Positions 1-22,351 of a stretch of 64,000 nt of DNA are shown here, one piece after another. The stretch is from contig JAHIMF010000041.1 of assembly GCA_018896645.1 (NCBI GenBank), positions 1,980-65,979 on the forward strand, in the 5' to 3' direction. This DNA comes from Patescibacteria group bacterium (GTDB taxonomy: Bacteria > Patescibacteriota > Patescibacteriia > UBA2591 > JABMQE01). The notes beneath the pieces are model-generated. The model worked only from the letters and a program-made list of their open reading frames with translations. It searched no databases and had not been told where the DNA came from. A program made the translations under genes and the position numbers. Within the stretch, counting starts at the first letter, position 1. Each line of letters opens with the position of its first letter.

Positions 1-162
1 TTTCATTTTTTTATTATCCCGCCGTTCATAGATAAAATTTTAAATAAAATAATTGGGGCTGATAAAGTCATAATTTTTAATCAAAGGTTTGAACGGTGGA
101 GCAGAAGGGTTTCTAGCAGATTTTTAGCGGGCGGTTATTTAATCAAGGCGGTTAAAAAATAG
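1..162 (+). CDS. 3' end of a gene truncated by the window edge (possibly a class I SAM methyltransferase)
   Basis: Frame 1 is open from base 1 (FHFFIIPPFIDK...RFLAGGYLIKAVKK) to TAG at 160-162. The product is a guess from the C-terminal strand pattern and context. Confidence 0.45.
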   Translation, partial: FHFFIIPPFIDKILNKIIGADKVIIFNQRFERWSRRVSSRFLAGGYLIKAVKK

Positions 163-175
163 CTCCCTTTAATTT

Positions 176-949
176 ATGGCTGACGATTTAGTAAAAAATA
201 TTACTTTTAGTTTTGATGACGGTAGCAGAGAAGATTTGAGATTGTTGGAGCTGCTAAACAGATACAACTTAAAAGGAACTTTTTATGTTCCCAAGAATTT
301 TCGTTTACGGACATTGACTGATGCCGATGTGAAACTTATCGCCAGAACCCAGGAAATTGGCGGGCACACGCTTCATCATCAGACATTGACCGAGCTGTCA
401 CCCGCACAACAAAGAAAAGAAATATTTGATTCTAAGAAATATTTGGAAGAATTGACAGGCAAAAAAGTGGGCGTGATGAGCTACCCCAATGGTCCTTACA
501 ATGCAGATATTATTGAGCTTCTCAAAGAAGCGGGTTATCTCGGCGCCCGGACTGTTAAGCGAGGGCCGTTTAGCTCTCCGAACAGTTTTGAGCTCGCTGT
601 CACTTTGCAATTTTATCCGTTTCCTTTGCGCAAGAAAGATAAAAACTCTTTTCTTTGGGGTCGGTATTTATTTGGCCCTCTTTGGTGGCATAGGGACCTA
701 ACAAAATACCTGCTGCCTATCTCATTTTTATCGTGGAAACGGTTGTCCAGAAACTCATTTGATTACATCAATAAACATGGAGGCACGCTCCATTTTTGGG
801 GTCATGGTTGGGAGATTGAGAAATATGGATTTTGGCAAGAGGTTGAGGCGTTTTTGAAGTATGTTTCCGGAAGAGACGATGTTGAATATGTTACTAACGG
901 CGAGCTTGTAAAAAAATTATTTTATGAAGATACTAATATTAATGGATAA
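176..949 (+). CDS. Polysaccharide deacetylase (CE4/NodB family)
   Basis: TFSFDDG, EIGGHTLHH, SYPNG and HFWGH CE4 motifs. Confidence 0.9.
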   Translation: MADDLVKNITFSFDDGSREDLRLLELLNRYNLKGTFYVPKNFRLRTLTDADVKLIARTQEIGGHTLHHQTLTELSPAQQRKEIFDSKKYLEELTGKKVGVMSYPNGPYNADIIELLKEAGYLGARTVKRGPFSSPNSFELAVTLQFYPFPLRKKDKNSFLWGRYLFGPLWWHRDLTKYLLPISFLSWKRLSRNSFDYINKHGGTLHFWGHGWEIEKYGFWQEVEAFLKYVSGRDDVEYVTNGELVKKLFYEDTNING

Positions 950-2171
950 ACTTCCCCCAGAAGACAAGGGCGGTGCGGAAATCGTTTGTTTAAATTTGGC
1001 CTGGGAATATCAAAAACAAGGTAATGAAGTGGGAGTTATCACAACTACTCGCAAGAAGGAATCACAAGGAAATTCTCTGGACCGCGGAGTGAAGGTCCAC
1101 CGGATTTATTCTAATTACCATAATCGTTGGCAGCCGTATGTCAGTTTGTATAATCCGTGGGTAGTTGCCAGGGTCAGGAAAATTTTGGCCAAAGAAAAAC
1201 CAGATATTGTCCATGCCCATGTTGTTCATAAACATTTGTCGTATTACAGCTTGAAGATAGTAAAAGAAATGGACATACCATTGGTTATTACTTTGCATGA
1301 TTGCCTATCAATTTGCTATAAAAAGTTCACTTGTTTTTATGACATTAAGGATTTGGATAATTCGCCTAATATTAATTATAAAGTCAAATCCTTAAAATGT
1401 TGGTGGTGCCAAAAATTAAGATATTTTCCTTTGCGCAATTTATTTGTCAGACGTTTTTTAAATACCTATCCTGATAAAGTCATAACAGTCAGTCAGGAGT
1501 TAAAAAAATTAGTGGAAGCCAATGGTATCAAAGTATCAGACACAATTCATAACGGTGTTGATGCGGATAATTTTAAGATTGATGATCAGGAAATTGAAAA
1601 TTTTAAAAAACTTTTTTCTTTGAGCGGGAAGAAGATAGTACTTTGCGCTGGTAGGTTGAATGAAACAAAGGGTTGTAATCAGCTTTTAGCTGCGATGAGG
1701 CGGGTTGGTCAAAATTTGACGGATGTTGTTTTACTGTTGCTTGCGAAAAAAGATGAATACAGCGAATCTTTGGTTAAGCGGGCCGCGGAGTCGGGCGTTA
1801 AAATAATTCTCACCGGCTGGCTGAACGGCAAAGATTTAATTGCGGCATATCATGCGGCCGATCTGGTAGTGACGCCCTCCATTTGTTTTGATACTTTTGG
1901 TATGGTAAACATTGAGGCAATGGCTTCTGAAAAGCCAGCCATCACCTCATGTTTTGGCGGCGGCAAGGAGATTGTAATTGATAACCAATCGGGTTATATA
2001 GTTAATCCTTTTGATGTTAATATATTCACCAAGCGGCTTAAAGCGCTGCTAACCGATGCTGACAAGGCCAAGGAGATGGGCGAATGCGGCAGAAAGATTG
2101 TGCAAGAGAAATTTCTTTTAGAATACTCGGCGCAAAAATATTTAAATTTATTTAAAGAATTAACCTCATGA
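924..2171 (+). CDS. Glycosyltransferase family 4
   Basis: GGAE N-terminus, TLHD, HNGVD, FGMVNIEAMA motif. Confidence 0.92.
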   Translation: MKILILMDKLPPEDKGGAEIVCLNLAWEYQKQGNEVGVITTTRKKESQGNSLDRGVKVHRIYSNYHNRWQPYVSLYNPWVVARVRKILAKEKPDIVHAHVVHKHLSYYSLKIVKEMDIPLVITLHDCLSICYKKFTCFYDIKDLDNSPNINYKVKSLKCWWCQKLRYFPLRNLFVRRFLNTYPDKVITVSQELKKLVEANGIKVSDTIHNGVDADNFKIDDQEIENFKKLFSLSGKKIVLCAGRLNETKGCNQLLAAMRRVGQNLTDVVLLLLAKKDEYSESLVKRAAESGVKIILTGWLNGKDLIAAYHAADLVVTPSICFDTFGMVNIEAMASEKPAITSCFGGGKEIVIDNQSGYIVNPFDVNIFTKRLKALLTDADKAKEMGECGRKIVQEKFLLEYSAQKYLNLFKELTS

Positions 2172-3613
2172 CGGATGCGATTTTATTTTTCCCAAAGACC
2201 GGGCCCAATTCAACGGCTCATCTCCCGATGAGCTTGCTTATGGTTGCGGCCCCTTTAGTTGAGCATGGTTATGAGGTTAAAATCATTGACCAGCGGTTAG
2301 AGGATGACTGGCAAGAAAAGTTGGCATCTGCTCTTAACGGCGGCGTTCTATTGGTTGGTTTTTCTGTGCTAACAGGCAAACAAATACTCTACGGTTTGGA
2401 AGCTTCTAAGTTCATTAAAGAAAACAGCAATGCTAAGGTGGTTTGGGGCGGGGTCCACCCCTCTTTATTGCCAAGACAAACTCTTGAGAATCATTATATT
2501 GATTTTGTAATTATTGGTGAAGGCGAGCAGGTGTTTGAGCGCTTGTTAGAGAAATTGAAAAATAGTGATGCCAATTATTCAGATGTGGATGGCCTCGGAT
2601 ATAAAAAAGATAGTGAAATATACATCAACGAGCAAAAGGATTTTATTGACCTAAATGCTCTGCCGTCGATTCCTTATAATTTAGTTGAAGTTGAGAAATA
2701 TGTTACCAAAAAATCATTCGCTTCGGGAAATCCTGGCCGAAATGTGGCTATTTATACCAGCCGCGGTTGTCCGCATCGTTGTGCGTTTTGCTACAACCTG
2801 AAATTTAACAAACGGCGCTGGCGAGGCAAGTCAGCCGAGAAGGTAATAATCGAGCTTGGACATTGGATAGACAGGTATAATATCAACGCTTTTGAAATTG
2901 AAGATGACGAATTTTTTGTTGATTTGAACCGCGTGCGTGAAATCTGCCTAAAAATCATTGAAAAAGGTTGGCAAATAGAAATATTTTCCAGCTCGCGGGT
3001 AAATTATTTAGAAAATATGGATGATGATTTTTTAAAATTGCTGTTTCGCGCTGGCTTCAAAACTTTGTCCTTCGGAGTAGAATCTGGCTCGCCAGAGATC
3101 CAAAAAGAAATTCATAAGGATATAACGAACGAACAGGTGTTCTCCGCAGTGAGGCGGTTGGGCAAAGCCGGCATCAATTCAAAATATTATTTTATGTGTG
3201 GTTTTCCCGGCGAGTCCATTGGGCAGTTGTACGAGACGATTGATTTGATTTACAAAATGAAGCAGGAGGACCGGCGCGTGCGCATTCCGCCTTGGCGCAT
3301 TTATACGCCATATCATGGCACCGAGTTGTATGAGAAGAGTATTCTGTCTGGTTGGCACCCGCCCAAGAACCTCAAGGCCTGGGCAAATTATGATTTTGAA
3401 ACAGCGAATATGCCCTGGCTGAACCGAAAAAAGAAAGTTATTATAAAAAACGCCGCTTGGATGTCAAAATATGTTGTTCTTGACAATAATGCCGGCGGCG
3501 GTATAAAATATAAACTGGGCCGGTTGTTTGGCAAGTGGATTGATTTCAGGTGGCGGCATCATTGGTTTTTCTTCGCGCCGGAAAGATCAATTCTATTGCT
3601 GGTAAAAGATTAG
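2168..3613 (+). CDS. Cobalamin-binding radical SAM protein (paralog 1)
   Basis: N-terminal B12-binding domain (WGGVHPS, GEGE), SRGCPHRCAFC, GVESGS. Confidence 0.92.
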   Translation: MTDAILFFPKTGPNSTAHLPMSLLMVAAPLVEHGYEVKIIDQRLEDDWQEKLASALNGGVLLVGFSVLTGKQILYGLEASKFIKENSNAKVVWGGVHPSLLPRQTLENHYIDFVIIGEGEQVFERLLEKLKNSDANYSDVDGLGYKKDSEIYINEQKDFIDLNALPSIPYNLVEVEKYVTKKSFASGNPGRNVAIYTSRGCPHRCAFCYNLKFNKRRWRGKSAEKVIIELGHWIDRYNINAFEIEDDEFFVDLNRVREICLKIIEKGWQIEIFSSSRVNYLENMDDDFLKLLFRAGFKTLSFGVESGSPEIQKEIHKDITNEQVFSAVRRLGKAGINSKYYFMCGFPGESIGQLYETIDLIYKMKQEDRRVRIPPWRIYTPYHGTELYEKSILSGWHPPKNLKAWANYDFETANMPWLNRKKKVIIKNAAWMSKYVVLDNNAGGGIKYKLGRLFGKWIDFRWRHHWFFFAPERSILLLVKD

Positions 3614-3716
3614 GTTAGTATAATGTTTGATTTTAAGCTAACCGCAGATTAAGGCGCTTGTTCCTCAATTAGGCTTTGTCTAAGTTTAACACGCCTCACA
3701 TTTAATTTATAGCATT

Positions 3717-5231
3717 ATGAAAGTTTTGCTGGTTAATCCGGCTCGCACCTATTATAAAGGTTCAAAGGGAGTGAGGTTAGGATTGCCTTTGGGTTTGATG
3801 TATATTGCCAGTGTTTTAGAGAAAAATTCCATTCCGGTAAAAATATTTGACACTCTTATTTCTGCTTCCACTAAAATTACAGAGCATTCAGACCATATTT
3901 ATCACGGGGTGGGTGATGATTTTTTTAAAGAGGTTATTGTCAGGGAAAAACCGGATGTGGTAGGGATTACTAGTCCGTTTACGGCTCAGGTTGGGAATTC
4001 TTGCGAGGCGGCTAGACTAATTAAAGAAGTTGATCCCAATATTTTTGTGGTTATCGGCGGACCTCATTTTGCAGTTTTGGGCCAAGAATTTTTAAAAGAA
4101 AACAAAAATATTGACGCCGCTATGATTGGCGAGGGCGAATTGGTAATGCCGACACTGCTAGAAACAATAGAAAATAACCAACCTTTTAATGCGATTGATG
4201 GATTGATTTATCGCTCTATTAATGACAGCGGAGAATCAGTGGTGATTGCGAATAATCCGAAGCTTATAAATGATTTGGATAGTTTGCCATTCCCAGCTTA
4301 TCATTTGATTGATATGGAAAGATACTTTGACTTTTTGAGAGAAGGTCTTTACGCTCGGCCGGGCCAACAAAAAAGGTCAATCTCAATGATTACGAGTCGG
4401 GGCTGTCCGTTTAATTGTGTTTTTTGTTCAATTCATTTGCATATGGGAAAAATTTGGCGCGCTCATTCGGCTGATTATGTAATTTCTCATATTGAGCGGG
4501 TGGTTAATAAATACGGGGTGGAGCACATATCGTTTGAAGATGATAATTTTACATCAAACTTCAAGAGATGCGAGAAGATCTTTGATTATTTATTAGAAAA
4601 AAAGATTAATATTACCTGGGATACTCCAAACGGAGTTCGGGCAGATACTCTAAATAAGGATTTGCTTAAAAAAATGAAAAAATCGGGCTGTACGGAGTTA
4701 GTAATCGGGACCGAGTCCGGAGATCAGGATACCTTGGATAATATTATTAAAAAAAATTTAAGATTAGAGAAAGTTGTTCAAGTTGCCCGATGGTGCAAGG
4801 AATTAAAGATTGAACTTAATTCTTTTTTCGTGATTGGTTTTCCCGGAGAAACTAAAGAGAAAATTCAGAAAACAATTGATTTTGCTTTTTTGCTTTATAA
4901 AAAATTTAACGTAAGACCGAATTTGATGACAGCTACTCCGTTAATCGGAACCGAACTACATAAGATAGTTGTCAGTAATGGATATCTAATAGAAGAGGTG
5001 ACGGCTGAAAATTTAGCTTTGGCAACTCAACCAAGAGGTAAGCCCTTAATCAAGACCCCCGAGTTTTCTCCTGAAGATTTAAAGGAGTCTGACAGAGAAT
5101 TGAAGACACGGTTAGCGAGATTAAATTTAGTCCGAAGATTAATAAACCCCAGGGAGTGGCTTAGGTTGTTGAGATTATTTTTAAGTAGGCCTTCAAGATT
5201 AATTTTGTATCTAAAAAAGCTTTGCGGTTGA
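3717..5231 (+). CDS. Cobalamin-binding radical SAM protein (paralog 2)
   Basis: PLGLMYIA, GGPH, GEGE, SRGCPFNCVFC, GTESG. Confidence 0.92.
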   Translation: MKVLLVNPARTYYKGSKGVRLGLPLGLMYIASVLEKNSIPVKIFDTLISASTKITEHSDHIYHGVGDDFFKEVIVREKPDVVGITSPFTAQVGNSCEAARLIKEVDPNIFVVIGGPHFAVLGQEFLKENKNIDAAMIGEGELVMPTLLETIENNQPFNAIDGLIYRSINDSGESVVIANNPKLINDLDSLPFPAYHLIDMERYFDFLREGLYARPGQQKRSISMITSRGCPFNCVFCSIHLHMGKIWRAHSADYVISHIERVVNKYGVEHISFEDDNFTSNFKRCEKIFDYLLEKKINITWDTPNGVRADTLNKDLLKKMKKSGCTELVIGTESGDQDTLDNIIKKNLRLEKVVQVARWCKELKIELNSFFVIGFPGETKEKIQKTIDFAFLLYKKFNVRPNLMTATPLIGTELHKIVVSNGYLIEEVTAENLALATQPRGKPLIKTPEFSPEDLKESDRELKTRLARLNLVRRLINPREWLRLLRLFLSRPSRLILYLKKLCG

Positions 5232-5234
5232 AAT

Positions 5235-5263
5235 TTGACTTTTAGCGGATAATTAGCTAAAAT
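5235..5263 (+). promoter_or_regulatory. Sigma70-type promoter for the CotH cassette
   Basis: TTGACT (5235-5240), 17 nt, TAAAAT (5258-5263); ATG at 5288. Confidence 0.6.
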
Positions 5264-5287
5264 TATACAAAAGATTACTTAAAAAGA

Positions 5288-8146
5288 ATGCCTAAACTGT
5301 TTAGAATATTTAAATATATTCCCGGAACCCAAAACAGGTTTTTTAAAAAACTTATTTTGGTTTTTTTCATTTTAGGTTTGATAGCTGTTATCTTTCTGAC
5401 AATTTTTGTGGCCGAGTATAAGGATTTTAATGACGTAATAAAGGCCAAGGTTCCGAAGTTGTCTTGGCTGGCTGAGTCTTACAATCTTCTGGATGTTCTT
5501 TATTTTTATTCTTATTTTCAGGAAACAAAATTACCTAAATACGAGATAATTATAGAAGAAGAAAATTTAAAAGTCCTTAATGAAAATTTGCCCGATATTA
5601 GTGAAATAACTTTGAGCGAGGAGTATAAAAAGAATTCAGTACCAGCGATCTTAAAATATAATGGAGAGGATTTTGAAGTAAAGGTAAGATATCGGGGAGA
5701 TTCGCAGGTTCATTGGGCATATCCTAAAAAGTCTTGGCGCGTGGAGTTAACAAATAAAACAATGGAAGACAAGGGTTTGATTAACGGTATGGAAAGTTTT
5801 AACTTGATTATAGGCGGGGACCGGTCTTTGGTCACAGAACAGCTAAGCTATTACCGATCCAAAAAATTAGGCTTAGCAGTGCCGCACAGCGAATTTGTTG
5901 ATTTAGAAATTAATGGAAAATATCAAGGAGCATATTGGCTTCTGGAGACCTGGGATAAAACATTCCTAGAGAAAAATAAAGTGGCATCAGATATAAACCT
6001 TTATGGCGAGAATGTTGAACGTTATGAACAAAAAAATATCTTTGCCAGTACTGACAGATGGACAAAATATACTTCAGACGAGATGGCGCTTTTTGATAAT
6101 TTTGCGGAAGTTGAGCAGTTATTGTACTTGTTAGAAATTCCAGACGAAGAATTTTATGAAAAAATTTCCGAACTGGTTGATTTGGACAGTTTCTATAAAT
6201 GGAACACGATTACTTTATTAGTCGGTGGCGATGGTCAGAAATATTCTAATAACATTCGAATGTATTTTGACAATACGCAGGGCAAGTTCAATTTTATTCC
6301 TTGGGATATCAGCCAGGTAGAAAGGCCAGAGCTTTATGATGCTTATGTAAGCCCGATTATAGACCGGATTTTAAGCAATCCAAGGTTTTTACAAGAGAGA
6401 AATAATTATTTATGGGATTATGTAAAAAATGAAGAAAATTTAGAGGATGACTTGAAATATTACGATGAGCTTTTTGGTAAAGTTAAAATTTCCTTTCATA
6501 AAGATCATTTAAAACTTTATAGTAATTTATTTTTTGACAGACAAGTTAGCAACCGAAGAAAATTGTTGATTGAACAGGTTGAGAACATAAAAAATAAACT
6601 TTCCGAAGCCAAGGTTTCGGTGGAAGCGAGGATTGACACTGATTTTAACAGTAGTCGAAGAGTAGTGGCGGACTTAAATTTTTTAACTCAAAATTTTAAT
6701 AGTTTAAACATAAAAAAAATTTCTTTTAGATGGGATGAGCCGGGAAGTTTTAAATTATATGATGATACCAATAATAATGGGATTTGGGACGATAAGGATC
6801 AGTTAGTCGGGAATTTTAAAAGAGATAATAAATGGCACGAAATTGATTTGAATAAAGAAATTTTTGCCAGGCGGGATTATGATGATTATAAGAAATTTAA
6901 ACAGGATAAGTTTTATCAAGAGAACTTTTTTAATCCCGTTAACATCATTATTACGCCATACCGTCTTTTCATAGTTTCGCAAGTACCTAAATTTGTGCCA
7001 GAAAATTTTAAATTTAAAATAGAGAATTCTTTAACCGGCAAAGAGGCCGATTTGACTAAGCGCTTTATTGACCTGGCCACTTTTGCTAATTTTGAAGATA
7101 TTTTTAAAAATAGAGAGCAATTTATTTTGGATAATCCGATTTTTAAGTTGAACGAAGAGGGGATAGTTTTACAAACTGGAATTTATCAAATTAACAAAGA
7201 CATAATAATACCCAAGAATACAAGCTTGACAATTCAAGTCGGGACGATTTTGAACTTTGCTTCTTCTACCTCCATGGTCTCTTATAGTCCGGTTAATATT
7301 TCCGGTACTAAGAATAATCCTATTATTTTTACGGCTCAAGATAAAAACAGGCCTTGGGGCGTCCTTGGTTTGACATCCGGAGCGGACGGCAGTATTATTA
7401 ATTATGCTATATTTGAACACGGAAGCGATGATTATATTAACGGAATCTATTTTTCCGGCATGGTTTCTAGTTATTTTGCCAAAACTGCGATTGACAACTC
7501 TACTTTCCAGTATGCCCAAGCTGATGACGGTTTAAACATCAAAAATTCTAGTTCTACTATATCCAATAGTTTTTTTCACCGCAATAGCGCTGATGGTCTA
7601 GATTTGGACTTTAGTAATTCTCGCGTGGAAAATAATCGTTTTATTGGCAATGGCAATGATGGTTTGGATCTCTCAAGTCATCAGCCATTTATTTTGAATA
7701 ATTATATTGAGGGATCGGGCGATAAAGGAATTAGCATTGGCGAAGATTCAAAAGCGATTATTATTAATAATTTGATGAAAGACAATAAAATTGGCATTGA
7801 GATAAAAGACCTTTCCGAACCGCAAGTGATTAATTGTACTATTATTGGCAATGAGATTGGCATAAATTCATACCAAAAGAAGGCAATCTTTGGAGGCGGA
7901 CATGGAAAAGTTTACAACTCTGTAATCTGGGCAAACGATGAGCAAATTACGTTTGACAATAAGTCCACAATCAGCATTAACCAAACTGACGTTGAGGGCG
8001 GTTACGAGGGTAATGGCAACCTGAATTTAGATCCAAAATTTGCTGATGATTTTAAAACTCAAAATAGCCAGATGAGGATTAATTTGGATTATTTAAAACA
8101 ATATTTAGAGATTTTGCCCAAAGAATTATTTATGGGAATATATTAG
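5288..8146 (+). CDS. Membrane-anchored CotH-family kinase with C-terminal right-handed beta-helix
   Basis: N-terminal TM helix; VKVRYRGD..HW..PKKSWRV, NNIRMYFD, FIPWD CotH motifs; DxNxNG loop; repeated DG(L/I)D / GDKGISIGE beta-helix turns. Confidence 0.85.
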   Translation: MPKLFRIFKYIPGTQNRFFKKLILVFFILGLIAVIFLTIFVAEYKDFNDVIKAKVPKLSWLAESYNLLDVLYFYSYFQETKLPKYEIIIEEENLKVLNENLPDISEITLSEEYKKNSVPAILKYNGEDFEVKVRYRGDSQVHWAYPKKSWRVELTNKTMEDKGLINGMESFNLIIGGDRSLVTEQLSYYRSKKLGLAVPHSEFVDLEINGKYQGAYWLLETWDKTFLEKNKVASDINLYGENVERYEQKNIFASTDRWTKYTSDEMALFDNFAEVEQLLYLLEIPDEEFYEKISELVDLDSFYKWNTITLLVGGDGQKYSNNIRMYFDNTQGKFNFIPWDISQVERPELYDAYVSPIIDRILSNPRFLQERNNYLWDYVKNEENLEDDLKYYDELFGKVKISFHKDHLKLYSNLFFDRQVSNRRKLLIEQVENIKNKLSEAKVSVEARIDTDFNSSRRVVADLNFLTQNFNSLNIKKISFRWDEPGSFKLYDDTNNNGIWDDKDQLVGNFKRDNKWHEIDLNKEIFARRDYDDYKKFKQDKFYQENFFNPVNIIITPYRLFIVSQVPKFVPENFKFKIENSLTGKEADLTKRFIDLATFANFEDIFKNREQFILDNPIFKLNEEGIVLQTGIYQINKDIIIPKNTSLTIQVGTILNFASSTSMVSYSPVNISGTKNNPIIFTAQDKNRPWGVLGLTSGADGSIINYAIFEHGSDDYINGIYFSGMVSSYFAKTAIDNSTFQYAQADDGLNIKNSSSTISNSFFHRNSADGLDLDFSNSRVENNRFIGNGNDGLDLSSHQPFILNNYIEGSGDKGISIGEDSKAIIINNLMKDNKIGIEIKDLSEPQVINCTIIGNEIGINSYQKKAIFGGGHGKVYNSVIWANDEQITFDNKSTISINQTDVEGGYEGNGNLNLDPKFADDFKTQNSQMRINLDYLKQYLEILPKELFMGIY

Positions 8147-8147
8147 T

Positions 8148-9842
8148 ATGCGTTTGCGATTTAGATATTTTTTCAGATTAACAAAATTTATATTAGCGCC
8201 GCTCGTGGTGTTGTTTATGATTGCGGCGGCGGTTTTTGTTATAGAGGCCAAGGATTTGCGGAGCCAGCCCGTTTTTGCCCGACTGATTGCGTTTATAGAT
8301 GCCAGAGGCATAAATAAGGTTTTAGATATTTTTTATCTTCATCATTCTTTTGAAAAGCGGAAATTGCCTACCTTCAAGCTTACTGTTGAGAAAGATTCCG
8401 AAAAAAAATTAGATGAGATGGCCCGGGCCGCGATTGCGGCGGATTTTCTCTTTGATGAAAATAAAGAATTTGTGCCGGCGACTCTTGTTTATAACGGTCA
8501 AAAATATCAAGTTGATATCCGTTATCGCGGGGACGGAGATATCCACTGGAAGTTCCCCAAAAAGTCCTGGAGGATTCGACTGAAAGGTGGCGAGCACATA
8601 ATGGGTTTTAACAATTTTGATTTGATTGTGCCCCGGGACCGGGGATTTGTTCTGGAAAATTTGAATAACTACCGAGCCGGAAAGCTGGGATTGCCGTCTT
8701 TGCGGGACCAGTTCGTTGACCTTGAAGTTAATGGCAGTTTTCATGGCCCATATTGGCTGGTAGATCATGACTACAGTGAATCATTAGAGGTTAGCAAGCG
8801 GCCGGCTGATGTCAATACTTACGGCGGTTATGTGCGGGGAAGGCCTCAATGGGAAGATACAAATGATACGGGCCGGTGGCAGAAGTACAGCGAGGACAAG
8901 GTTTCGCAGTTTGATAATTATGCGGAAATGGATAAACTTCTCGACTTTCTCAAAAATACAGAAACAGAAGAATTCTATTTGAGGATTGGGGAGCTCGTGG
9001 ACCTTAGAAGTATGTATGCTTGGCAAGTCCTGACGGAACTTTCTGGCAGTGATCATAATGGGTTTGGAAATAGCAGGTTATATTTTGATAACACTTTGGG
9101 TAAATTTAGTATTATCCCTTGGGACATAGAAGGCGGCGGGGCTCCACCTGACTATGCCTCCAATCTTTTGCTTGCCCGCATTTTTAAAAATCCTCAATTT
9201 TTACACGAGAAGAACGAATTACTGTGGAGCTATGTATCGGACGCGGCTAATTTGAAGGATGATTTGGCCCATTATGACGAATTATACAACGAAGTTAAGA
9301 CATCCTTTTATAAAGACCGCAAGAAGCAGGTAAGCAGTTACCAGTTTGATAAAGAGGTTAGATACTGGAGAGATACCTTAGAAGCACAATTTGAGGTTGC
9401 TAAAGAACGGTTTGCTCGAGCCGAGGTGCTTATTGGGACGGGTGCTATAGAAGGGACGACACGTTTTGATGTCATAACAACGAATTATGCCGGTTTAGAT
9501 TTTAGGGGAGTGTCATTTAAAAGTGATGCAAGCCGGGATTTTCAAGATTTAGCCTTATATTTTGACAGTAATTACAATGGTAATCTGGATTCTGCTGACG
9601 AATATATTGATAAATTTGAATTTGAGGATAATAGTTATCGCGTTCAATTTTCAAAAATTCTTTTTGCCGAAAGGAACTACCCGGATGATTATCGTGATTT
9701 TACAGCTTCCAAAGCAGAAATTTTACCGACCAGATACACTTTTTTTGTTGTTGGCGCGCCACTCGCGGCCTCTTTGACTTTTGATATCACTAATGTTTTT
9801 ACCGGTGAACAAGCAACGAAGTTGACAAACCAGTTAAAATAA
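8148..9842 (+). CDS. Membrane-anchored CotH-family kinase (second paralog, no beta-helix)
   Basis: N-terminal TM; IRYRGD..HWKFPKKSWRI, GNSRLYFDN, IIPWD; colinear with the upstream paralog. Confidence 0.85.
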   Translation: MRLRFRYFFRLTKFILAPLVVLFMIAAAVFVIEAKDLRSQPVFARLIAFIDARGINKVLDIFYLHHSFEKRKLPTFKLTVEKDSEKKLDEMARAAIAADFLFDENKEFVPATLVYNGQKYQVDIRYRGDGDIHWKFPKKSWRIRLKGGEHIMGFNNFDLIVPRDRGFVLENLNNYRAGKLGLPSLRDQFVDLEVNGSFHGPYWLVDHDYSESLEVSKRPADVNTYGGYVRGRPQWEDTNDTGRWQKYSEDKVSQFDNYAEMDKLLDFLKNTETEEFYLRIGELVDLRSMYAWQVLTELSGSDHNGFGNSRLYFDNTLGKFSIIPWDIEGGGAPPDYASNLLLARIFKNPQFLHEKNELLWSYVSDAANLKDDLAHYDELYNEVKTSFYKDRKKQVSSYQFDKEVRYWRDTLEAQFEVAKERFARAEVLIGTGAIEGTTRFDVITTNYAGLDFRGVSFKSDASRDFQDLALYFDSNYNGNLDSADEYIDKFEFEDNSYRVQFSKILFAERNYPDDYRDFTASKAEILPTRYTFFVVGAPLAASLTFDITNVFTGEQATKLTNQLK

Positions 9843-9855
9843 GCTAATGTGTGAC

Positions 9856-9985
9856 ATTAAAGCAATTATGAAAATACAAGAATAACGACGAATAGTTATT
9901 TTTATATTCTTGTATTCTTGTTATTTTCATAGCAGGTATCCCTCTATTTTTATAATTTCATAACTTCAATGCTTTAATGTTTTTT
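9856..9985. repeat. AT-rich ~8-nt-period imperfect inverted array (AAAATACA/AGAATA type)
   Basis: CATTAAAGCA...AAAATACAAGAATAAC followed by GTTATTTTTATATTCTTGTATTCTTG...TGCTTTAATG; related arrays at 25376 and 29784. Confidence 0.6.
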
Positions 9986-9993
9986 AATGAAAC

Positions 9994-10767
9994 ATGAAAC
10001 CCACTCTTCATTTCCAAAGATTTGAATTTAAATATCCAATGCATAAGCCAACGGCCGAGAAGATAATTCCAGCCCTATTAAAATATATGAGCTGGGATCC
10101 TTTTGTTTCGGGAAGGGGAGATAAATCTTACTTGGTAAATAGTCTTTATTTTGACAATAGCGGTTATGGCTGTTATTTTGAGAAGGAGTCGGGCGAGAAG
10201 TTTAGGAAAAAATTTCGTTTACGAGTTTATGAGAGCGAAGTTAAAGATGATACGAACATTTTTGTAGAAATAAAGAGAAAAAATAACGCTTTGATAATAA
10301 AGGACAGAGTGCATTTGCCAGCTAAAGATGCGAGGAGGATTTTAGTGAATAATAAATTGAATAGCTATGTTGGGCAAATCAGCGACGATGACATGATGGT
10401 TTTAAAAGAATTTTTATGGACTAAGAATTATAATTGCATGATGCCCAGAATTATGGTAGCATATAGGAGGAAACCGTTAGTAGCCAAGACAGACAGGAAT
10501 GTTCGGGTGACATTTGATTATGACATCCGCGCAAAATTAACAAACTGGTTTAATTGTAATAATTTTGCCTGGAAAGAGGTTTTGCCAGGCAGTTTAATTT
10601 TAGAGATAAAATATAATAATATCCTGCCTTTTTGGCTGCACGAGATTATCCAAAAATATCAACTGGAGCGGGTCGCTTTTTCAAAATATTGTAATGCGGT
10701 AAGGGCTTGTATGCCGCAGATTGACGATGGAAGCGGAAGGGACAGCGGAAACTATTTGGGTGTATAA
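9994..10767 (+). CDS. VTC-domain (polyphosphate polymerase-like, triphosphate tunnel metalloenzyme) protein
   Basis: RFEFKY, SLYFDN, KFRLRVY, FVEIKRK, YRR, VRVTFD, ILEIKY, FSKY, matching the Vtc4 catalytic-domain motif series. Confidence 0.88.
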   Translation: MKPTLHFQRFEFKYPMHKPTAEKIIPALLKYMSWDPFVSGRGDKSYLVNSLYFDNSGYGCYFEKESGEKFRKKFRLRVYESEVKDDTNIFVEIKRKNNALIIKDRVHLPAKDARRILVNNKLNSYVGQISDDDMMVLKEFLWTKNYNCMMPRIMVAYRRKPLVAKTDRNVRVTFDYDIRAKLTNWFNCNNFAWKEVLPGSLILEIKYNNILPFWLHEIIQKYQLERVAFSKYCNAVRACMPQIDDGSGRDSGNYLGV

Positions 10768-10786
10768 CTTTTAATAATAAAAAATT

Positions 10787-11470
10787 ATGCTAGACAACTT
10801 GTTTGGATCGGGAGGAGCAACAACTTTATCCGTTGGAACAATTATTGTTAACATCACACTCACTTTTTTATTGACGTTTATTATCGCCCTGGTTTATAGA
10901 AAGACCCACAAAGGATTATCATATTCCCAATCATTTGTGTTTACTTTGGTGCTTTTGGGGGTATTAATTTGTGTAGTGATGATGGTAATTGGCAGCAGTG
11001 TAGCTCGGGCCTTTGGAGCCCTGGGCGCATTTTCTTTAATTCGTTTTAGAACGGCAGTTAAAGACACCAAGGATACGGCTTTTGTGTTTTTTGCGGTAGC
11101 TATCGGAATGGCGATTGGAACTAATAATTATCATATTGCCATAATTGGCGTGATAATTATTTCTTTTATCATATTAATTTTGTCCCGTATAAATTTTGGC
11201 TCAATCAGGAAATATGATTACATTCTAACTTTTATGAGCGATAGCGATAAGGTCGCTGATGGGGCCACAAAACCAATTTTTAGCAAGTATCTGAAAACAA
11301 GCAATCTTTTGAATGTCTCGGCAAAGGAACATGGCAAGATTTTGGAAATGACTTTTAATGTTAAATTTTTTAGCGAAGACGACAGGGACAACCTTCTTAA
11401 AGAACTCAATGCGATTGAAGGCGTGAGCGAGGTAAATTTAATTAGCGCTAAGAATGACATTGAGTATTGA
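10787..11470 (+). CDS. DUF4956 family membrane protein
   Basis: SYSQSF, AFGALGAFSLIRFRTAVKD signature; several TM helices plus a soluble C-terminal domain. Confidence 0.88.
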   Translation: MLDNLFGSGGATTLSVGTIIVNITLTFLLTFIIALVYRKTHKGLSYSQSFVFTLVLLGVLICVVMMVIGSSVARAFGALGAFSLIRFRTAVKDTKDTAFVFFAVAIGMAIGTNNYHIAIIGVIIISFIILILSRINFGSIRKYDYILTFMSDSDKVADGATKPIFSKYLKTSNLLNVSAKEHGKILEMTFNVKFFSEDDRDNLLKELNAIEGVSEVNLISAKNDIEY

Positions 11471-11521
11471 TAGATTAGGATTGTATTTTTGTAGGTTGGG
11501 ATTAAATTATAATTTACTTTC

Positions 11522-13132
11522 ATGAATATCTCATACAAAAGAAAAATAATCATCACTGCCCTGATTATTTTTTTATTGGCAGTGGCAGTGCGGTCAGCGC
11601 CGGTGGTTTATAAGAGGTACTCACATAAATTAAGTTATTATCATTTAGTTGCCGCGCGCAATCTGGCGGAAAGTGGAAAGTTTGCGGTTGAAAGCGAGAA
11701 GAATGTAGTTTTATCCAGCCACCGCATTGGGCAAGAAGGAGCAACGCCAAAAAATATCGCTCACGAGTACACGCCGGTTATCTACGGCTGGATTTTTAAA
11801 CTCTTTGGTTTTGGCCAAACCTATCCGCTGTATATTAGCATGGCTCTTTACGCGCTTGGCAATGTTTTGCTTTTTTTCTTGATTCTAAAAATTTTCAATT
11901 ATCGAGCGGCAATAATTTTTAGCATTATTGACATTTTATGCCCAATTATTATTGTCTGGTCAAACGTTGCCGGTTCTTATGATCTGGCAATGTTTTTTTT
12001 CATTTTGGCGCTATTTGCATATTTTTATCAAGAGAAAGCAAAGCCACATTTATTGGTAATTTCCGGTTTGCTTTTAGGGGTGGCGGCATTATGCAGAACT
12101 CCGTTTTTGTTTTCCGTTATTCCCCTCGCGTCATACGAGTTAATCCAAAATCGTTCGCTCCGCCGTTTTTTTATTTTTACCATCCCGTTTAGCCTGGTAT
12201 TTTTAGGGCTTTTTGGTTTTAATTTTTTATTTAGCAGCCATAGCGGTGCGCCGGTTGGAGCCGTAAATTTTGACGGGCATTTATTTAGAGACCCTTATAC
12301 TTTTCATTTTGAGAAAGAAAAGTATTTTCAACAAGTCGGGGCGTCCAATAATGCCGATATGATCGGCTACCTTAGAGCTTATGGCCAACATTTAAGCTTA
12401 AAACAGCAGTTATGGTTTAGAATTAGCTCTGCTCGTTACTATTTAATATATACTTTTAGATTGATTACTTTTGGCGGCGTTGTAATGGTTTTTTTAGCCG
12501 GACTGGGTTTTTATTACCTATTTAAAATTAAAAAAAATCTTTTTTGGTTGGCTTTAATTTGGTTGATATCATGTTTCGGCATTCACATATTAATTGGAAC
12601 CTCAAACCACGATCATTTTTTGGAAGTTCGTTTTCCGGTAATTCTTTTAATGACTGGCGGTTTTCTGTTATTTTTTCAGTTCATTGAAAAACAAAAAATT
12701 CCAACCAAGACCGTAAATATTCTTTTTGTGCTGATTATGACCGTGGTCGTTTTACACTTGACAGAAGCAAACAAATGGTCGTTTCACGAGATGTATAGTA
12801 ATTCAGAAAGTAGCCAGCTTAAAGAGGTTATTGACATTTTGAAAGAACATCGGGATGAAATGAGCGATAGCGATGTTGTTGCCGTTAGTTTTTCTGAAGT
12901 CGCGCCAATTATTTTTAATTATTATACTAATAAAAGTTTTGTTTATTTCGCGCCGGAGACAATCCAAGAATTAATCAAACAGAATAAATTGCAAGATGGT
13001 TTTGATTATTTTGGGGTAACTAAGATTGTTGGCTATAGTCCAGCTTTTTCAGATGAGATTATGAAAAATGCTCGAGTTGGAAATATTACTTCATATGTAC
13101 CCGAAGAATGTACATTGTATTCGACGTATTAA
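11522..13132 (+). CDS. GT-C fold (ArnT/PMT-like, GT39/83) membrane glycosyltransferase
   Basis: Multi-TM protein with ARNL loop, P..Y motif and GLLLGVAALCR segment. Confidence 0.75.
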   Translation: MNISYKRKIIITALIIFLLAVAVRSAPVVYKRYSHKLSYYHLVAARNLAESGKFAVESEKNVVLSSHRIGQEGATPKNIAHEYTPVIYGWIFKLFGFGQTYPLYISMALYALGNVLLFFLILKIFNYRAAIIFSIIDILCPIIIVWSNVAGSYDLAMFFFILALFAYFYQEKAKPHLLVISGLLLGVAALCRTPFLFSVIPLASYELIQNRSLRRFFIFTIPFSLVFLGLFGFNFLFSSHSGAPVGAVNFDGHLFRDPYTFHFEKEKYFQQVGASNNADMIGYLRAYGQHLSLKQQLWFRISSARYYLIYTFRLITFGGVVMVFLAGLGFYYLFKIKKNLFWLALIWLISCFGIHILIGTSNHDHFLEVRFPVILLMTGGFLLFFQFIEKQKIPTKTVNILFVLIMTVVVLHLTEANKWSFHEMYSNSESSQLKEVIDILKEHRDEMSDSDVVAVSFSEVAPIIFNYYTNKSFVYFAPETIQELIKQNKLQDGFDYFGVTKIVGYSPAFSDEIMKNARVGNITSYVPEECTLYSTY

Positions 13133-13138
13133 ATAAAA

Positions 13139-13235
13139 GAGGTTACGCACTTTGATTATTTTTGGCTAAAATTAGTCAATAATAAAATTATTCGAGGTGT
13201 TAATATTAGCAAAATTTTTAATACTGCGTAACTTC
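13139..13235. mobile_element. MITE-like 97-bp element
   Basis: GAGGTTACGCA (13139-13149) and TGCGTAACTTC (13225-13235) are inverted repeats (10/11) around a non-coding AT-rich core. Confidence 0.5.
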
Positions 13236-13251
13236 GGTAGATAAAAAAGCC

Positions 13252-14712
13252 ATGGCTCGTATTGTACTAATAAACCCACAATTTAATTTACCAAGAAATA
13301 CCTATGATGAATCTTTGAACATGGGTATTATGTCAATTGCAAGCTATCTTGACGCTCATGGTTTGGATACAAAAATTCTTGATCAGGCGCGGCAGCGGAC
13401 ATTTTGGGATAGCTTGGGTAGGGAGTTAGCAGATGCTGAATATGTTGGTTTATCGGTCATGACGACTCAAATTCCAAATGCTTTAAAAGTAACCAGAGAA
13501 ATAAAAAAAAATAACCCAAATGTCAAAATTATTTGGGGTGGTATTCATCCAACGTTATTCCCCCGAGAAACAGTTGCCGAACCATTGATTGATTTTGTTG
13601 TTTATGGAGAAGGTGAAGTGCCATTACTTAAGCTCATACGCGGCGTTTCCATGGCAGAAATTAAAGGTTTGGGATATAAACATGATACTAAATGTATTAC
13701 TAACCCCCCAGGCGAGCTGTTTGATCTTAACGAGCTGCCGGTGTATAATTGGAATTTATTGCCTCAAGAGATACTTGAAAAAATGTCGCTTGTTCCGTTG
13801 GCAATGAGTCGTGGTTGCCCCCACCGATGCGCCTTTTGCATAAACACCATTACCAAAAACAAATGGCGAAGCATGTCGTTGCCCAAAATTATTGAGAATT
13901 TGCGATTGGTTAAAAAATCCCCCTATCTTAGAGGTAAATATGCTTCGTTTTCATTTGAAGAAAATTTTTTTGTCAATAAAGAACGTGTCAAAGAGATATG
14001 TAAGGCGATTATTTCAGAGTCGCTTTTAGTAGAATGGGAGGCTCCTTGTCGGGCTGATTATATTCGTGAAGGGTTTGTTGATGATGAACTTTTAACCTTA
14101 TTAAAAAGAGCCGGTTTACGGCGGATGGGCATTGGCGCCGAGTCGGGTTCAAATAGAGTACTTGCTCTTATTAAAAAAGATTTAACAGCCGAACAGACAA
14201 TTTATGCCAATCAAAAATTAGCTGAACATGGAATCAGTCCTTATTATGGTTTTATGGTGGGTTTACCTGGTGAGACTTGGGATGATGTGATTGCTACGTT
14301 AAATCTTATCGATCGAATCAAAAAAGATAATCCCCAGGCAGAAATTATGGGACCCCAGCCATTTCGGTTATATCCGGGCTCAGAATTATATAATGAGTGT
14401 ATTAATTTGGGCTGGAAGTCGCCGAAAAGCCTTAACGAATGGAAAAAAGTAATTAATGAGGAGCTTAATTATTTAAATATGAAAAATTATCCTTGGGTTA
14501 AAAATCCTGCAGTTATTGAAGCAATTGATGCATATGCCCGCTTTGGTTCAAATTCTTTCCGACAAGCCATGGCATTAGGTGTTAGCGCTCCCCGCATTTT
14601 TAAATTTTTGTTTGCTGTTATATGTAAAATTCGTTGGAAACTAAGGTTTTTTCGTTTCCCTTATGAATACCTTTTAGCGAAAAAATTAGTGACACTTTTT
14701 TCGCGAAATTAG
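13252..14712 (+). CDS. Cobalamin-binding radical SAM protein (paralog 3)
   Basis: WGGIHPT, GEGE, SRGCPHRCAFC, GAESGS. Confidence 0.92.
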   Translation: MARIVLINPQFNLPRNTYDESLNMGIMSIASYLDAHGLDTKILDQARQRTFWDSLGRELADAEYVGLSVMTTQIPNALKVTREIKKNNPNVKIIWGGIHPTLFPRETVAEPLIDFVVYGEGEVPLLKLIRGVSMAEIKGLGYKHDTKCITNPPGELFDLNELPVYNWNLLPQEILEKMSLVPLAMSRGCPHRCAFCINTITKNKWRSMSLPKIIENLRLVKKSPYLRGKYASFSFEENFFVNKERVKEICKAIISESLLVEWEAPCRADYIREGFVDDELLTLLKRAGLRRMGIGAESGSNRVLALIKKDLTAEQTIYANQKLAEHGISPYYGFMVGLPGETWDDVIATLNLIDRIKKDNPQAEIMGPQPFRLYPGSELYNECINLGWKSPKSLNEWKKVINEELNYLNMKNYPWVKNPAVIEAIDAYARFGSNSFRQAMALGVSAPRIFKFLFAVICKIRWKLRFFRFPYEYLLAKKLVTLFSRN

Positions 14713-14732
14713 TAGATAATATCAAAAAATCG

Positions 14733-15566
14733 TTATTTCTTTCTAAACACTATTTCTATCTTAGCAGCATTCAAATCGCGAGGATTTATATTTTCTAAAC
14801 CCATTAAAATATCATCATGAATTTTAACCTTAATTTGAGCTGCCTGGCTTTTGATGCTTTTTATTTCAAAATCGTATTTTTGGGCTAACTTCCTGTAATG
14901 TGGCAGGAGCTTTCGATTCATAAAGCAAGTTTTTTGATCGTTCACTCTTTTCCATGTTTTTGGGGAGTATTGCAGATGACGAAATTTATTATTGAATAAG
15001 AATTTTAGAAGTGGCAGAGAGCTGAATGGGTAATACAGATGGTCAACAAAATCTACGACATGGTACATAGTACCACTATTTTTTAGCCATTGATTAAAAT
15101 TTTTAAAAATTTGGTTTAAGTCTGGTATATGTTCAAGTGTTGTATGTGAGAATATGGTATCAATTTTCCCATTGTAGTCAGATAACAAATTTTTTTCATC
15201 AGCACCTTTTTTATAGATTTTTATTTTTCCAAAAAGTTCTTCCTTAACAATTTTATCAGGGAATAATTTTTCAATCTCAACTGCATACTGCGTGAGTTGC
15301 TTGGTTGCATTTTTGTCAATGCAGGGTTCTATGACAATAACTTTTTTGGCACCAGAATAGATGAGGTACAAAGCCGTATAGAGTTGATTACCAGCCCCAA
15401 CTTCAATAACAGTTTTGTTCGGGACGGACAAGGCATTAACATATTGTTCAGCAATAGCTACAAAAGACTTGGCACTTTTTGGTTTAGCTATTTTTTTTTT
15501 CAAGAAATAAAATAATTTTGGATTAAATTTTTTTCTAATTAAACGATATATAAGGTCAGGTATCAT
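14733..15566 (-). CDS. Class I SAM-dependent methyltransferase
   Basis: VIEVGAG motif I, FSHTTLEHI, LKNSG. ATG at 15566; a TTG at 15575 is an alternative start. Confidence 0.8.
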   Translation of the reverse strand: MIPDLIYRLIRKKFNPKLFYFLKKKIAKPKSAKSFVAIAEQYVNALSVPNKTVIEVGAGNQLYTALYLIYSGAKKVIVIEPCIDKNATKQLTQYAVEIEKLFPDKIVKEELFGKIKIYKKGADEKNLLSDYNGKIDTIFSHTTLEHIPDLNQIFKNFNQWLKNSGTMYHVVDFVDHLYYPFSSLPLLKFLFNNKFRHLQYSPKTWKRVNDQKTCFMNRKLLPHYRKLAQKYDFEIKSIKSQAAQIKVKIHDDILMGLENINPRDLNAAKIEIVFRKK

Positions 15567-15654
15567 TTTAGCCAAATATAAGATTAAATTTTTAAAAAAT
15601 TGTTGGATAGAGAAGGACTGTAGAACCAGAAAGACACAAGTGAATAGTTTAGGA

Positions 15655-16659
15655 CTAGGAGTCTGGCAATGAGACCGGGGAGCATGGTTTCTTTTTTAAC
15701 ATTATAACAGCATATATTATCAATGTCATTAGTGGAATAAATAGCAACATAACGACTCTTTGGCCGACGAGGAATGTACTAATATCTTCAGGAGCAATAG
15801 CAATTACTTTAAGAATAACAAACCAGCCAGCCTCAAAAATACCAATTCCACCAGGAGTAAAAGATATAAATAAGGCGAGCTGGGTGATAGGAATACTCAT
15901 GATGACAACACCGAGAGGAATGTTGATATTAAAAGTTTTAAAAAGAAGATAAAAGAGTAAACCTCGAGAAAGAAATTTCACAAATGAAATAAGAACCAGT
16001 TTAATAGAGAAGGGCTTAGTAAAAACAATACTTTGGGTTTCATCAAGTAGTTTTGCAGTATCAATCCTTTTTTGCAAGAAAGGGATTTTTTTTATAACCC
16101 TTATAGCTAGTTTGTAAAGAATAAAAAGGAGATGACTGACATCTTTGTTAATAAAAATGATAAAAACGATAAGTAACGCAATAGCCAAACAAGAAAGCGC
16201 CAGTGCTAAGCCCAGGCTGATAATGTTAAGAAAAAAGAGAAGAGATGGTACGACTACCAGTAAAAGGTTTATAAGATCAAAAATTCGTTCAATTAGGGTA
16301 GCGCTAGTTGCTTTAAAGAGAGATATTTTTTTAGAAGCTTTCAGAGCGGCGACCCTGGCGGTAAAACTGACTGGTTCATGAATAGTAAAGGAGCCGATCA
16401 AAAAGCTAAGTGTGTAGTAAAAGAAATATTCGATAAAAGACATGACTTTTGCTTTTTGGACATAGTTAACAATCAGCCCCCAGCGGTAGGAGAACAGGCC
16501 ACACATAATAAGAGAAGTAAAAAAAGAAAGAGTAAGATACGTAATATTTACTCCCAGCAATGAGCGCCAGGAGAAGTCTTTGTTAATATAAAGTATGAAG
16601 CCAAAAATTATAAGACCAAGGAGCAATAAAAGAATTTTTTTAGTAGTTATCTTTTTCAT
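15655..16659 (-). CDS. Flippase-like (lysylphosphatidylglycerol synthase TM / UPF0104) protein
   Basis: RW after TM2, ERIFD, TPGGIGIFEA motifs. Confidence 0.85.
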   Translation of the reverse strand: MKKITTKKILLLLLGLIIFGFILYINKDFSWRSLLGVNITYLTLSFFTSLIMCGLFSYRWGLIVNYVQKAKVMSFIEYFFYYTLSFLIGSFTIHEPVSFTARVAALKASKKISLFKATSATLIERIFDLINLLLVVVPSLLFFLNIISLGLALALSCLAIALLIVFIIFINKDVSHLLFILYKLAIRVIKKIPFLQKRIDTAKLLDETQSIVFTKPFSIKLVLISFVKFLSRGLLFYLLFKTFNINIPLGVVIMSIPITQLALFISFTPGGIGIFEAGWFVILKVIAIAPEDISTFLVGQRVVMLLFIPLMTLIIYAVIMLKKKPCSPVSLPDS

Positions 16660-16751
16660 ATTCTAGGAGGTTTGCTATAAAAGAAGCATTGGGTTATAAT
16701 TCGAGAAAGAAGAAGAGATGTCATGAGATTTTTTATAAGTTCTAATAAACA

Positions 16752-17618: not shown

Positions 17619-17620
17619 AC

Positions 17621-18784: not shown

Positions 18785-18824
18785 AATAATCCTTTTATAA
18801 AAGTAAATAAAAAAGACTAAAATC

Positions 18825-22347: not shown

Positions 22348-22351
22348 TGAT

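Follow-up and report, generated by a model that had tools for sequence, protein, structure and literature searches.

A conserved CotH, VTC and DUF4956 gene cassette in a patescibacterial surface-glycan locus: a candidate system for polyphosphate synthesis and export

Gene content of the locus

Here we describe a four-gene cassette in a stretch of 64,000 nucleotides (nt; the whole stretch is called the window below) from contig JAHIMF010000041.1 of a Patescibacteria group bacterium (assembly GCA_018896645.1). The cassette consists of four neighbouring open reading frames (ORFs), all intact as ORF calls and all on the + strand, which encode two CotH-family proteins (CotH1 and CotH2), a VTC protein and a DUF4956 membrane protein (Table 1). 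An earlier interpretation made without database searches (the sequence-only reading) had named these four ORFs and the neighbouring GT-C, and coordinates and family matches confirm them. It had further proposed that VTC and DUF4956 make and export polyphosphate (polyP), which the CotH proteins would use in place of ATP to phosphorylate the cell surface. This proposal is partly supported by the present analysis: the Vtc4-like polymerase, the topology, the co-inheritance of the genes and the glycan context within the lineage speak for it, while the notion of polyP replacing ATP has been weakened.

Table 1. Features of the cassette and its immediate flanks in the window, with lengths in amino acids (aa)
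Feature	Coordinates	Strand	Details
CotH1	5288..8146	+	952 aa; Pfam CotH (PF08757) E 9e-27, 94.8 bits vs cut-off 23.8
CotH2	8148..9842	+	564 aa; Pfam CotH (PF08757) E 6e-18, 65.9 bits vs cut-off 23.8
VTC	9994..10767	+	257 aa; family match E 3e-43
DUF4956	10787..11470	+	227 aa; family match E 1e-13
GT-C-type membrane glycosyltransferase	11522..13132	+	PMT_2 E 1e-6; context gene
Sigma-70-like promoter consensus match	5235..5263	+	10/12, spacer 17, predicted; inside 56-nt gap before cotH1

The intergenic gaps, in order from the upstream side of cotH1 to the GT-C gene, are 56, 1, 151, 19 and 51 nt. The source genome is 1.33 Mb and 96% complete, and its closest homologues with a name belong to Buchananbacteria, Kuenenbacteria, Falkowbacteria and Magasanikbacteria, in keeping with Patescibacteria. 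Contigs from three DNA runs, one of which may be the source sample of the stretch, showed no differing letters or indels over the covered parts. The DNA runs containing the stretch are from groundwater, and no RNA run was listed as containing it.

Conservation of the gene set

To see how the genes are distributed we used a class sample of 201 genomes, where a strong match to VTC was found in 15 genomes and a weak one (E above 1e-9) in 4 more, while DUF4956 was found in 16 and CotH in 21. All 15 genomes with VTC have DUF4956, and all 16 with DUF4956 have CotH; the one genome with DUF4956 but no VTC is 73% complete and has its DUF4956 gene at the end of a contig. These 16 genomes span 14 families. 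CotH is located within 10 kb in 14 of them; in the remaining two it is either over 18 kb away or on a different contig. The cassette is patchy, with VTC in 2 of 21 close relatives, source genome included.

The same association was seen in GTDB loci, of which we analysed the best 80 of 560, picked by DUF4956 motif and similarity and hence biased. VTC was present in 73 of the 80, in 67 of them no further than 400 bp from DUF4956, and CotH was present in 59; where at least 5 kb was available on both sides the counts were 43/44 for VTC and 35/44 for CotH. In two phylum samples, one around an Alteromonadaceae genome and one around a Planctomycetota genome, DUF4956 occurred in 8/201 and 20/81 genomes. 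The loci fetched from them had VTC in 9/10 and 19/23 cases and CotH in 6/10 and 18/23, counted by hand with two already-collected loci excluded, and several of the misses are short contigs. It should be noted that kin genomes are not independent, and all counts are given without a P value. The trio co-occurs far above chance, and the check that the sequence-only reading had suggested, co-occurrence across genomes, thus revealed tight co-inheritance.

At genome level all three families were also found in Bacteroides thetaiotaomicron, Corynebacterium glutamicum and Methanosarcina acetivorans of the control set, and the trio is also found next to glycosyltransferase genes on annotated plasmids from Planococcus and Pseudobutyrivibrio. 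Eight records titled 'uncultured Gammaproteobacteria' (L044, L045, L048, L049, L051, L052, L053 and L059) hold close Patescibacteria-type cassettes; the titles are probably mislabelled.

The VTC protein

The VTC protein is a single domain without a hydrophobic segment and is predicted to be soluble; over its full length it has neither an SPX domain nor a three-helix membrane domain of its own. When a profile of 103 homologues was searched against the PDB, Vtc2, Vtc3 and Vtc4 were the sole strong matches (best E 7e-19). The AlphaFold model (pLDDT 92.9) gave a Foldseek TMq of 0.79 to Vtc4 (3g3r) and at most 0.52 to the listed hydrolase and cyclase members of the triphosphate tunnel metalloenzymes (TTMs). 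Sequence identity to Vtc4 is 19%.

Residues K13, R75, R77, K94, E204, K206 and K231 correspond to K200, R264, R266, K281, E426, K428 and K458 of Vtc4, as counted by hand from the profile alignment, and all seven are invariant across the 103 homologues. In 88 locus-derived VTCs that are paired with a DUF4956, K13, R75, E204, K206 and K231 were invariant in all and R77 in 87, with one R77K. Published work reports that R264A/R266A/E426N inactivates Vtc4 and that the Vtc4 TTM on its own works slowly when no channel is coupled to it (PMC9911596). The four glutamates of the hydrolase TTMs become basic residues in Vtc4 (PMC4641920). Three of these four acid-patch positions are likewise basic in VTC (R9, K103 or R105, and K206), by a mapping made from sequence and partly inferred, not by superposition; the fourth is E11, an invariant Glu.

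The Vtc4-like motif series noted by the sequence-only reading is hence confirmed in both catalytic set and fold. On the strength of fold and catalytic residues, we consider that the VTC protein is probably a polyphosphate polymerase. The yeast VTC complex (3G3Q, 3G3R, 7YTJ, 8I6V; PMC9911596) has in common with the cassette the TTM fold, the Vtc4 catalytic residues and a membrane partner, which is here encoded next door. It differs in that our VTC lacks SPX and a fused membrane domain and has Glu11 for Thr198, and in that the partner is five-helix and MgtC-like, not a three-helix DUF202. Separately, four unannotated faecal 'bacteriophage' records match VTC with 23-29% identity.

The DUF4956 membrane protein

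The multi-TM character of DUF4956 was recovered in the predicted model (pLDDT 91), which has five helices (16-40, 48-68, 72-86, 94-111 and 115-134) followed by an ACT-like domain (145-220). The MgtC/SapB family profile matches weakly over helices 2-5, and the C-terminal domain is similar to that of MgtC in structures 7QA5 and 2LQJ, with Z of 8.8 and 8.6, values that other ACT folds equal. The scores are, however, far under the curated MgtC/SapB cut-offs (18.8 vs 31.4 bits in Pfam, 37.9 vs 214 in NCBIfam), and unlike that family DUF4956 has its own invariant RFR motif and is nearly always found beside VTC.

Helix 3 is rich in Gly, Ala and Ser, and its predicted inner end carries the conserved residues R86-F87-R88, K92 and D96. 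R86 and R88 are conserved to 99% each, and R74, at the predicted outer end of the same helix, to 75%. The arrangement predicted here would be compatible with a pore-lining helix or with a docking patch for a polyanion, and proves neither. In the yeast VTC complex, basic TM1 residues line the channel (PMC9911596).

DUF202 had no match anywhere in the source genome and none over cut-off in any of the 16 trio genomes (one match was sub-threshold). Fold searches with DUF4956 listed no Vtc channel subunit, although the ACT domain dominated these searches; an Atlas search with the membrane part, DUF4956 clusters excluded, gave hits of only 0.77, and HH-align of the DUF4956 profile against the VTC profile found no relation. 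The model has five helices and an ACT domain where Vtc1 has three helices. From sequence and model DUF4956 appears MgtC-related and not a Vtc1-type subunit, which leaves a channel role only as a candidate. Given polymerase activity of VTC, we regard it as an even call whether a DUF4956 oligomer would form its docking site and pore.

Contact between the two proteins was also looked for in the sequences. Among 88 non-redundant VTC/DUF4956 pairs the best inter-protein covariation (z 8.1) fell inside the range of shuffled pairings (6.5-9.1), and the mirror correlation of 0.90 is what co-inheritance predicts. Four long DUF4956 ORFs looked like VTC-DUF4956 fusions and were rejected as open-frame extensions in GC-rich DNA; no fusion was found in the 80 loci, and no search of longer proteins was made.

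The CotH proteins

The two CotH proteins are 36% identical over 580 columns, and each has a single N-terminal hydrophobic segment (23-41 in CotH1, 14-32 in CotH2) with charges of +4/0 and +5/+1 on its N-terminal and other side. By the positive-inside rule both anchors are N-in, as are those of 36 of the 44 homologues with a detected anchor (in a separate count, an N-terminal anchor was detected in 41/56). The CotH kinase fold is thus predicted to face outward, in agreement with the sequence-only reading. That reading's right-handed beta-helix is present in CotH1 (about 717-912) and missing from CotH2. The C-terminal region of CotH1 had no PDB sequence match at E 1 and so gives no hint of the substrate. 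A DxNxNG Ca-binding-like motif is found in both proteins (493-504 in CotH1) and in 6/55 homologues.

In B. subtilis CotH residues D228 and D251 are essential and Tyr142 and Trp245 sandwich the adenine (10.1101/469122, PMC12189002); the structure of Bacillus CotH was solved with Mg/AMP (10.1101/469122). We placed these residues on 5JD9 by the 23-residue spacing of D228 and D251 and a one-residue offset. A 51-sequence CotH profile aligned to 5JD9 with E 1e-41 and put a His on the D228 equivalent, and a profile-profile alignment against 26 lower-scoring CotH domains gave the same His-on-Asp register with probability 100. The catalytic-base Asp is accordingly replaced in both window proteins, by His303 in CotH2 and by Gly316 in CotH1, and His occupies the position in 41/51 homologues. 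Asn308, Arg310, Asp326, Tyr225 and Trp325 are kept in CotH2, as are Asn322, Arg324, Asp340, Tyr239 and Trp339 in CotH1; among the homologues the adenine-sandwich Tyr is found in 46/51 and the Trp in 42/51. Conceivably, an Asp one residue before the base position (D302 in CotH2, D315 in CotH1; conserved in 6/51) could replace the catalytic base. Another register, equating H-x-D with N-x-D, would keep the base Asp (Asp there in 28/51). It was rejected because both profile alignments put the His on the Asp, and even in this register both window proteins are without the Asp.

We then compared 87 distinct CotH domains from the fetched loci, with 4 duplicates dropped and the window proteins left out. 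His-type domains made up 54, of which 50 have Arg or Lys two residues past the catalytic Asn (Asn+2) and 43 a beta-helix, whereas only 1 of the 19 Asp-type domains has Arg or Lys there and none a beta-helix; 14 were of other types. These counts show two subclasses of CotH accompanying the VTC-DUF4956 pair. By their residues, the CotH proteins of the window are to be seen not as canonical kinases but as members of the His/Arg, beta-helix subclass, and the added His and Arg suggest an altered chemistry on an anionic substrate. The 'two anchored CotH-family kinases' of the sequence-only reading thus keep their anchors and their family, while kinase is only a family label where the base Asp is absent.

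In common with the Bacillus spore-coat kinase CotH (5JD9/5JDA) the window proteins have the fold family, the catalytic Asn, the metal Asp and the adenine-sandwich Tyr and Trp. They differ in being anchored and predicted outward-facing, in His or Gly at D228 and Arg at Asn+2, in the beta-helix fusion of CotH1 and in their non-sporulating host. Two CotH paralogues of unequal length are also found at the Patescibacteria loci L046, L063 and L070, so the duplication in the window is recurrent. A second glycan locus of the source genome (L205 561-1748, G000:C46) encodes a stand-alone beta-helix protein of 395 aa that is 36% identical to CotH1 602-922, and it could complement CotH2, which has no beta-helix.

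Relation to the Pel accessory genes

The sequence-only reading knew of no functional description of the module. The three families are in print as a gene set, since cotH, a polyphosphate polymerase gene and DUF4956 are described as accessory genes of Gram-positive pel loci (10.1101/768473), and none of the papers we found establishes a function for them. In Streptococcus intermedius the trio is SIR_1592-1594, with a single CotH-FN3 protein that is said to retain the catalytic residues (10.1101/2024.04.20.589940), and C. perfringens NELoc-2 also carries CotH and polyphosphate-polymerase-domain genes (PMC11677781). The S. intermedius paper reports the trio from pel operons only, and a paper on the lipocone (PMC12419801) contained nothing relevant to the cassette. 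Our literature search, whose coverage leaves out most subscription journals, found no paper proposing export or a His subclass.

As in the window, the Pel accessory cluster has the three families directly next to one another and close to polysaccharide genes, and the domain reading is also the same: a secreted CotH, a cytoplasmic VTC and an MgtC-like membrane protein with an ACT domain. The window cassette differs in lying outside a pel operon and in having two CotH paralogues of the His subclass and beta-helix class in place of one CotH-FN3. None of the 17 ORFs of window 1-22347 belongs to a Pel-specific family, and PelG was not found in the 96% complete genome, where other pel genes were not searched genome-wide. 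The trio is a real and conserved module, already published as a set of genes, and the window copy extends this set outside pel loci with a His-type, beta-helix CotH subclass.

Genomic context and partner genes

The cassette is surrounded by GT4s, B12 radical S-adenosylmethionine (SAM) enzymes, methyltransferases, a DegT aminotransferase and a deacetylase, that is, a surface-glycan locus. Glycan-synthesis genes lie within 6 kb at 12/15 class loci and at 18/25 GTDB loci classed by hand as Patescibacteria-like on the basis of title and identity; the base rate in the source genome is 135/627 sampled positions (22%). Outside Patescibacteria they were found at 9/30 other GTDB loci and 2/23 phylum-sample loci, where the window-derived glycan queries are less sensitive. 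The glycan context is lineage-specific, and the glycan-locus setting of the sequence-only reading holds within Patescibacteria and seldom elsewhere in our samples. The GT-C neighbour is not conserved as a trio member across loci.

In eight diderm loci an HlyD-like adaptor is found beside DUF4956 or VTC, and two have a TolC-family protein; no TolC-family gene was found in the source genome. A single-anchor protein with TPR and a beta-sandwich-like part is present in 21 diderm loci (L102 4982-6109, L101 5396-6400 and 19 more), where it directly adjoins a His-type CotH or DUF4956; the two representatives that were scanned matched nothing in Pfam above its cut-off. Phosphate transporters, a porin, phosphatases and a pyrophosphatase are scattered beside some diderm loci. 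Thymidylate-kinase-like or P-loop proteins were seen inside or just before the cassette at L192 4028-5695, L195 9417-11075 and L027 13584-14162, the last by motif only.

We found no PPK1, PPK2 or PPX in the source genome or the other 15 trio genomes, hence no route for cytoplasmic recycling of polyP. Across the whole class PPX is over cut-off in 4/201 genomes and PPK2 in 1/201, and with such rarity their absence from the trio genomes is weak evidence.

Proposed mechanism and alternatives

The reading we tentatively favour, at somewhat less than even confidence, is a split VTC-like system in which membrane-coupled polyP synthesis and export feed an atypical surface phosphotransferase. VTC would use ATP to polymerise polyP on the inner side of the membrane, and DUF4956 would dock VTC and pass the chain outward. 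The two anchored CotH-fold proteins would then use exported polyP to add phosphate to surface glycans. In CotH2, His303 would act as the base or carry the phosphate, and Arg310 would make an additional contact to the anion, whereas CotH1, having no such His, might be a less active partner that binds substrate for CotH2 through its beta-helix. That CotH consumes the exported chain and that a glycan is the acceptor is what we infer from context. In favour of the scheme we count the Vtc4-type fold and active site, the closeness of VTC to DUF4956, the slow action of an uncoupled Vtc4 TTM, the negative searches for PPK1, PPK2, PPX and DUF202 in the trio genomes, the predicted outward topology of CotH, the adaptors and TolC of diderm loci, and the glycan genes near the class loci.

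Several observations weigh against this phosphotransferase scheme. The catalytic base is replaced in both CotH proteins, and the kept adenine pocket fits a nucleotide donor and argues against a simple use of polyP instead of ATP, the part of the sequence-only reading that is weakened. The basic residues of DUF4956 are located at helix ends, and the MgtC profile is weakly matched, below cut-offs, by 108/143 DUF4956 members; MgtC is regarded as a context-dependent regulator of inorganic phosphate (Pi) and ATP (PMC13712879). There is no CotH by profile in 9/44 well-flanked loci, and on a Hymenobacter plasmid (L125 6724-9964) the adaptor occurs together with DUF4956 and TolC, but neither VTC nor CotH was found within 8 kb. 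To these come the scarce glycan neighbours outside Patescibacteria, the rarity of PPK2 and PPX in the class and the invariant Glu11 of VTC. In S. intermedius, deletions of the trio keep Pel and the DUF4956 mutant shows a small drop in aggregation, and the authors expected cytoplasmic polyP (10.1101/2024.04.20.589940).

That last expectation is the core of one alternative, in which no polyP leaves the cytoplasm. DUF4956 would then be a membrane regulator or scaffold of the MgtC type that adjusts VTC, through the ACT domain, to the status of phosphate, Mg or ATP, and CotH, only loosely connected with the pair, would work at the surface with a nucleotide. The relationship to MgtC and its described role, the ACT domain, the phosphate-related genes flanking some loci and the two class genomes with a distant CotH agree with this alternative. 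It leaves unexplained the exported CotH in all 16 genomes and the adaptors and TolC beside the pair in diderms, and no enzyme that degrades or uses polyP was found in the 16 trio genomes; we regard it as rather unlikely. We give a similarly low rating to the proposal that polyP is made and exported and that the CotH proteins, with little or no catalytic activity, bind the chain as it emerges and fix it to the glycan layer, giving the surface an anionic coat that binds metal. The base Asp missing from both window proteins, the further absence of His in CotH1 and the Arg or Lys at Asn+2 in 50/54 His-type vs 1/19 Asp-type domains would suit such an anchor; against it, the Lys, Glu, Asn, metal Asp and adenine aromatics are highly conserved, the His is kept as often as an active site would show, and canonical-looking Asp-type CotH proteins stand beside the same VTC-DUF4956 pair at other loci.

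The chemistry itself could also be different at either end of the system. The invariant Glu11 leaves room for VTC to be a triphosphatase or short-chain phosphotransferase, with the cassette handling another phosphorylated metabolite for envelope synthesis: hydrolase TTMs have an acidic residue at this position, where Vtc4 has Thr198, identity to Vtc4 is low, and AtTTM3 has many tunnel residues in common with Vtc4 yet makes no polyP (PMC4641920). The fold is, however, clearly nearer Vtc4 than any listed hydrolase, basic residues occupy the rest of the acid patch and the residue matching K458 is invariant, which makes this quite improbable in our view. At the outer end, CotH might hold an adenine nucleotide that is recharged by exported polyP, as an outward polyP:ADP/AMP phosphotransferase yielding ATP-equivalents outside the membrane. 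The kept Tyr and Trp, the Mg/AMP in the solved Bacillus structure and the His and Arg added in the catalytic loop are in line with this, while the Asp-type partners have neither His nor Arg. We know of no kinase-fold protein that recharges a bound adenine nucleotide from polyP, and we find the possibility very improbable.

All readings with polyP export taken together appear reasonably probable. In its widest form, which we hold to be on the unlikely side, the proposal is that bacteria and archaea have a second, PPK-independent polyP machine: a free Vtc4-type polymerase would dock on a pore formed by an MgtC-fold oligomer with no relation to Vtc1 and export polyP, and outside, in the absence of ATP, a His-type ecto-enzyme of the kinase fold would phosphorylate surface glycans with it, directly or via a recharged bound adenine nucleotide. 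The cassette bears on how bacteria place polyP outside their cells and on what fuels exported kinase-fold proteins. In Bacillus cereus, extracellular polyP that is PPK-independent and of unknown origin is reported in a 2026 preprint, which found no VTC4 homologue there (PMC13484657). The trio offers named, deletable candidates in tractable organisms. If the proposal is true, the MgtC fold would gain a transport function and a His-for-Asp kinase subclass would be defined; if polyP stays inside, there would still be a new bacterial polyP polymerase in genomes without PPK.

Other features of the window

The sequence-only reading placed the cassette behind its own promoter. The consensus match is present, but at 10/12 it is only one of 36 sigma-70-like sites of that grade in the region, where shuffles gave 22.9 +/- 4.5. 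An Rfam scan of window 1-20000 gave no match.

Five B12-dependent radical SAM genes are clustered in the glycan locus (window 2168-5231, 13252-14712 and 20932-23764); four were scanned, and the best score of one was to a P-methyltransferase model, below cut-off. At 54477-55340 (-) lies a gene for a 287-aa protein with a C-terminal domain like FlgD-Ig and the type IX secretion system (T9SS), with a GC content above its surroundings; an outer-membrane efflux gene was looked for in the host genome and none was found. Finally, an RmlB-like NAD-dependent sugar dehydratase gene at 44299-46344 (+), adjoining an RmlA-like gene, is split by an intein with a LAGLIDADG domain (residues ~102-428).

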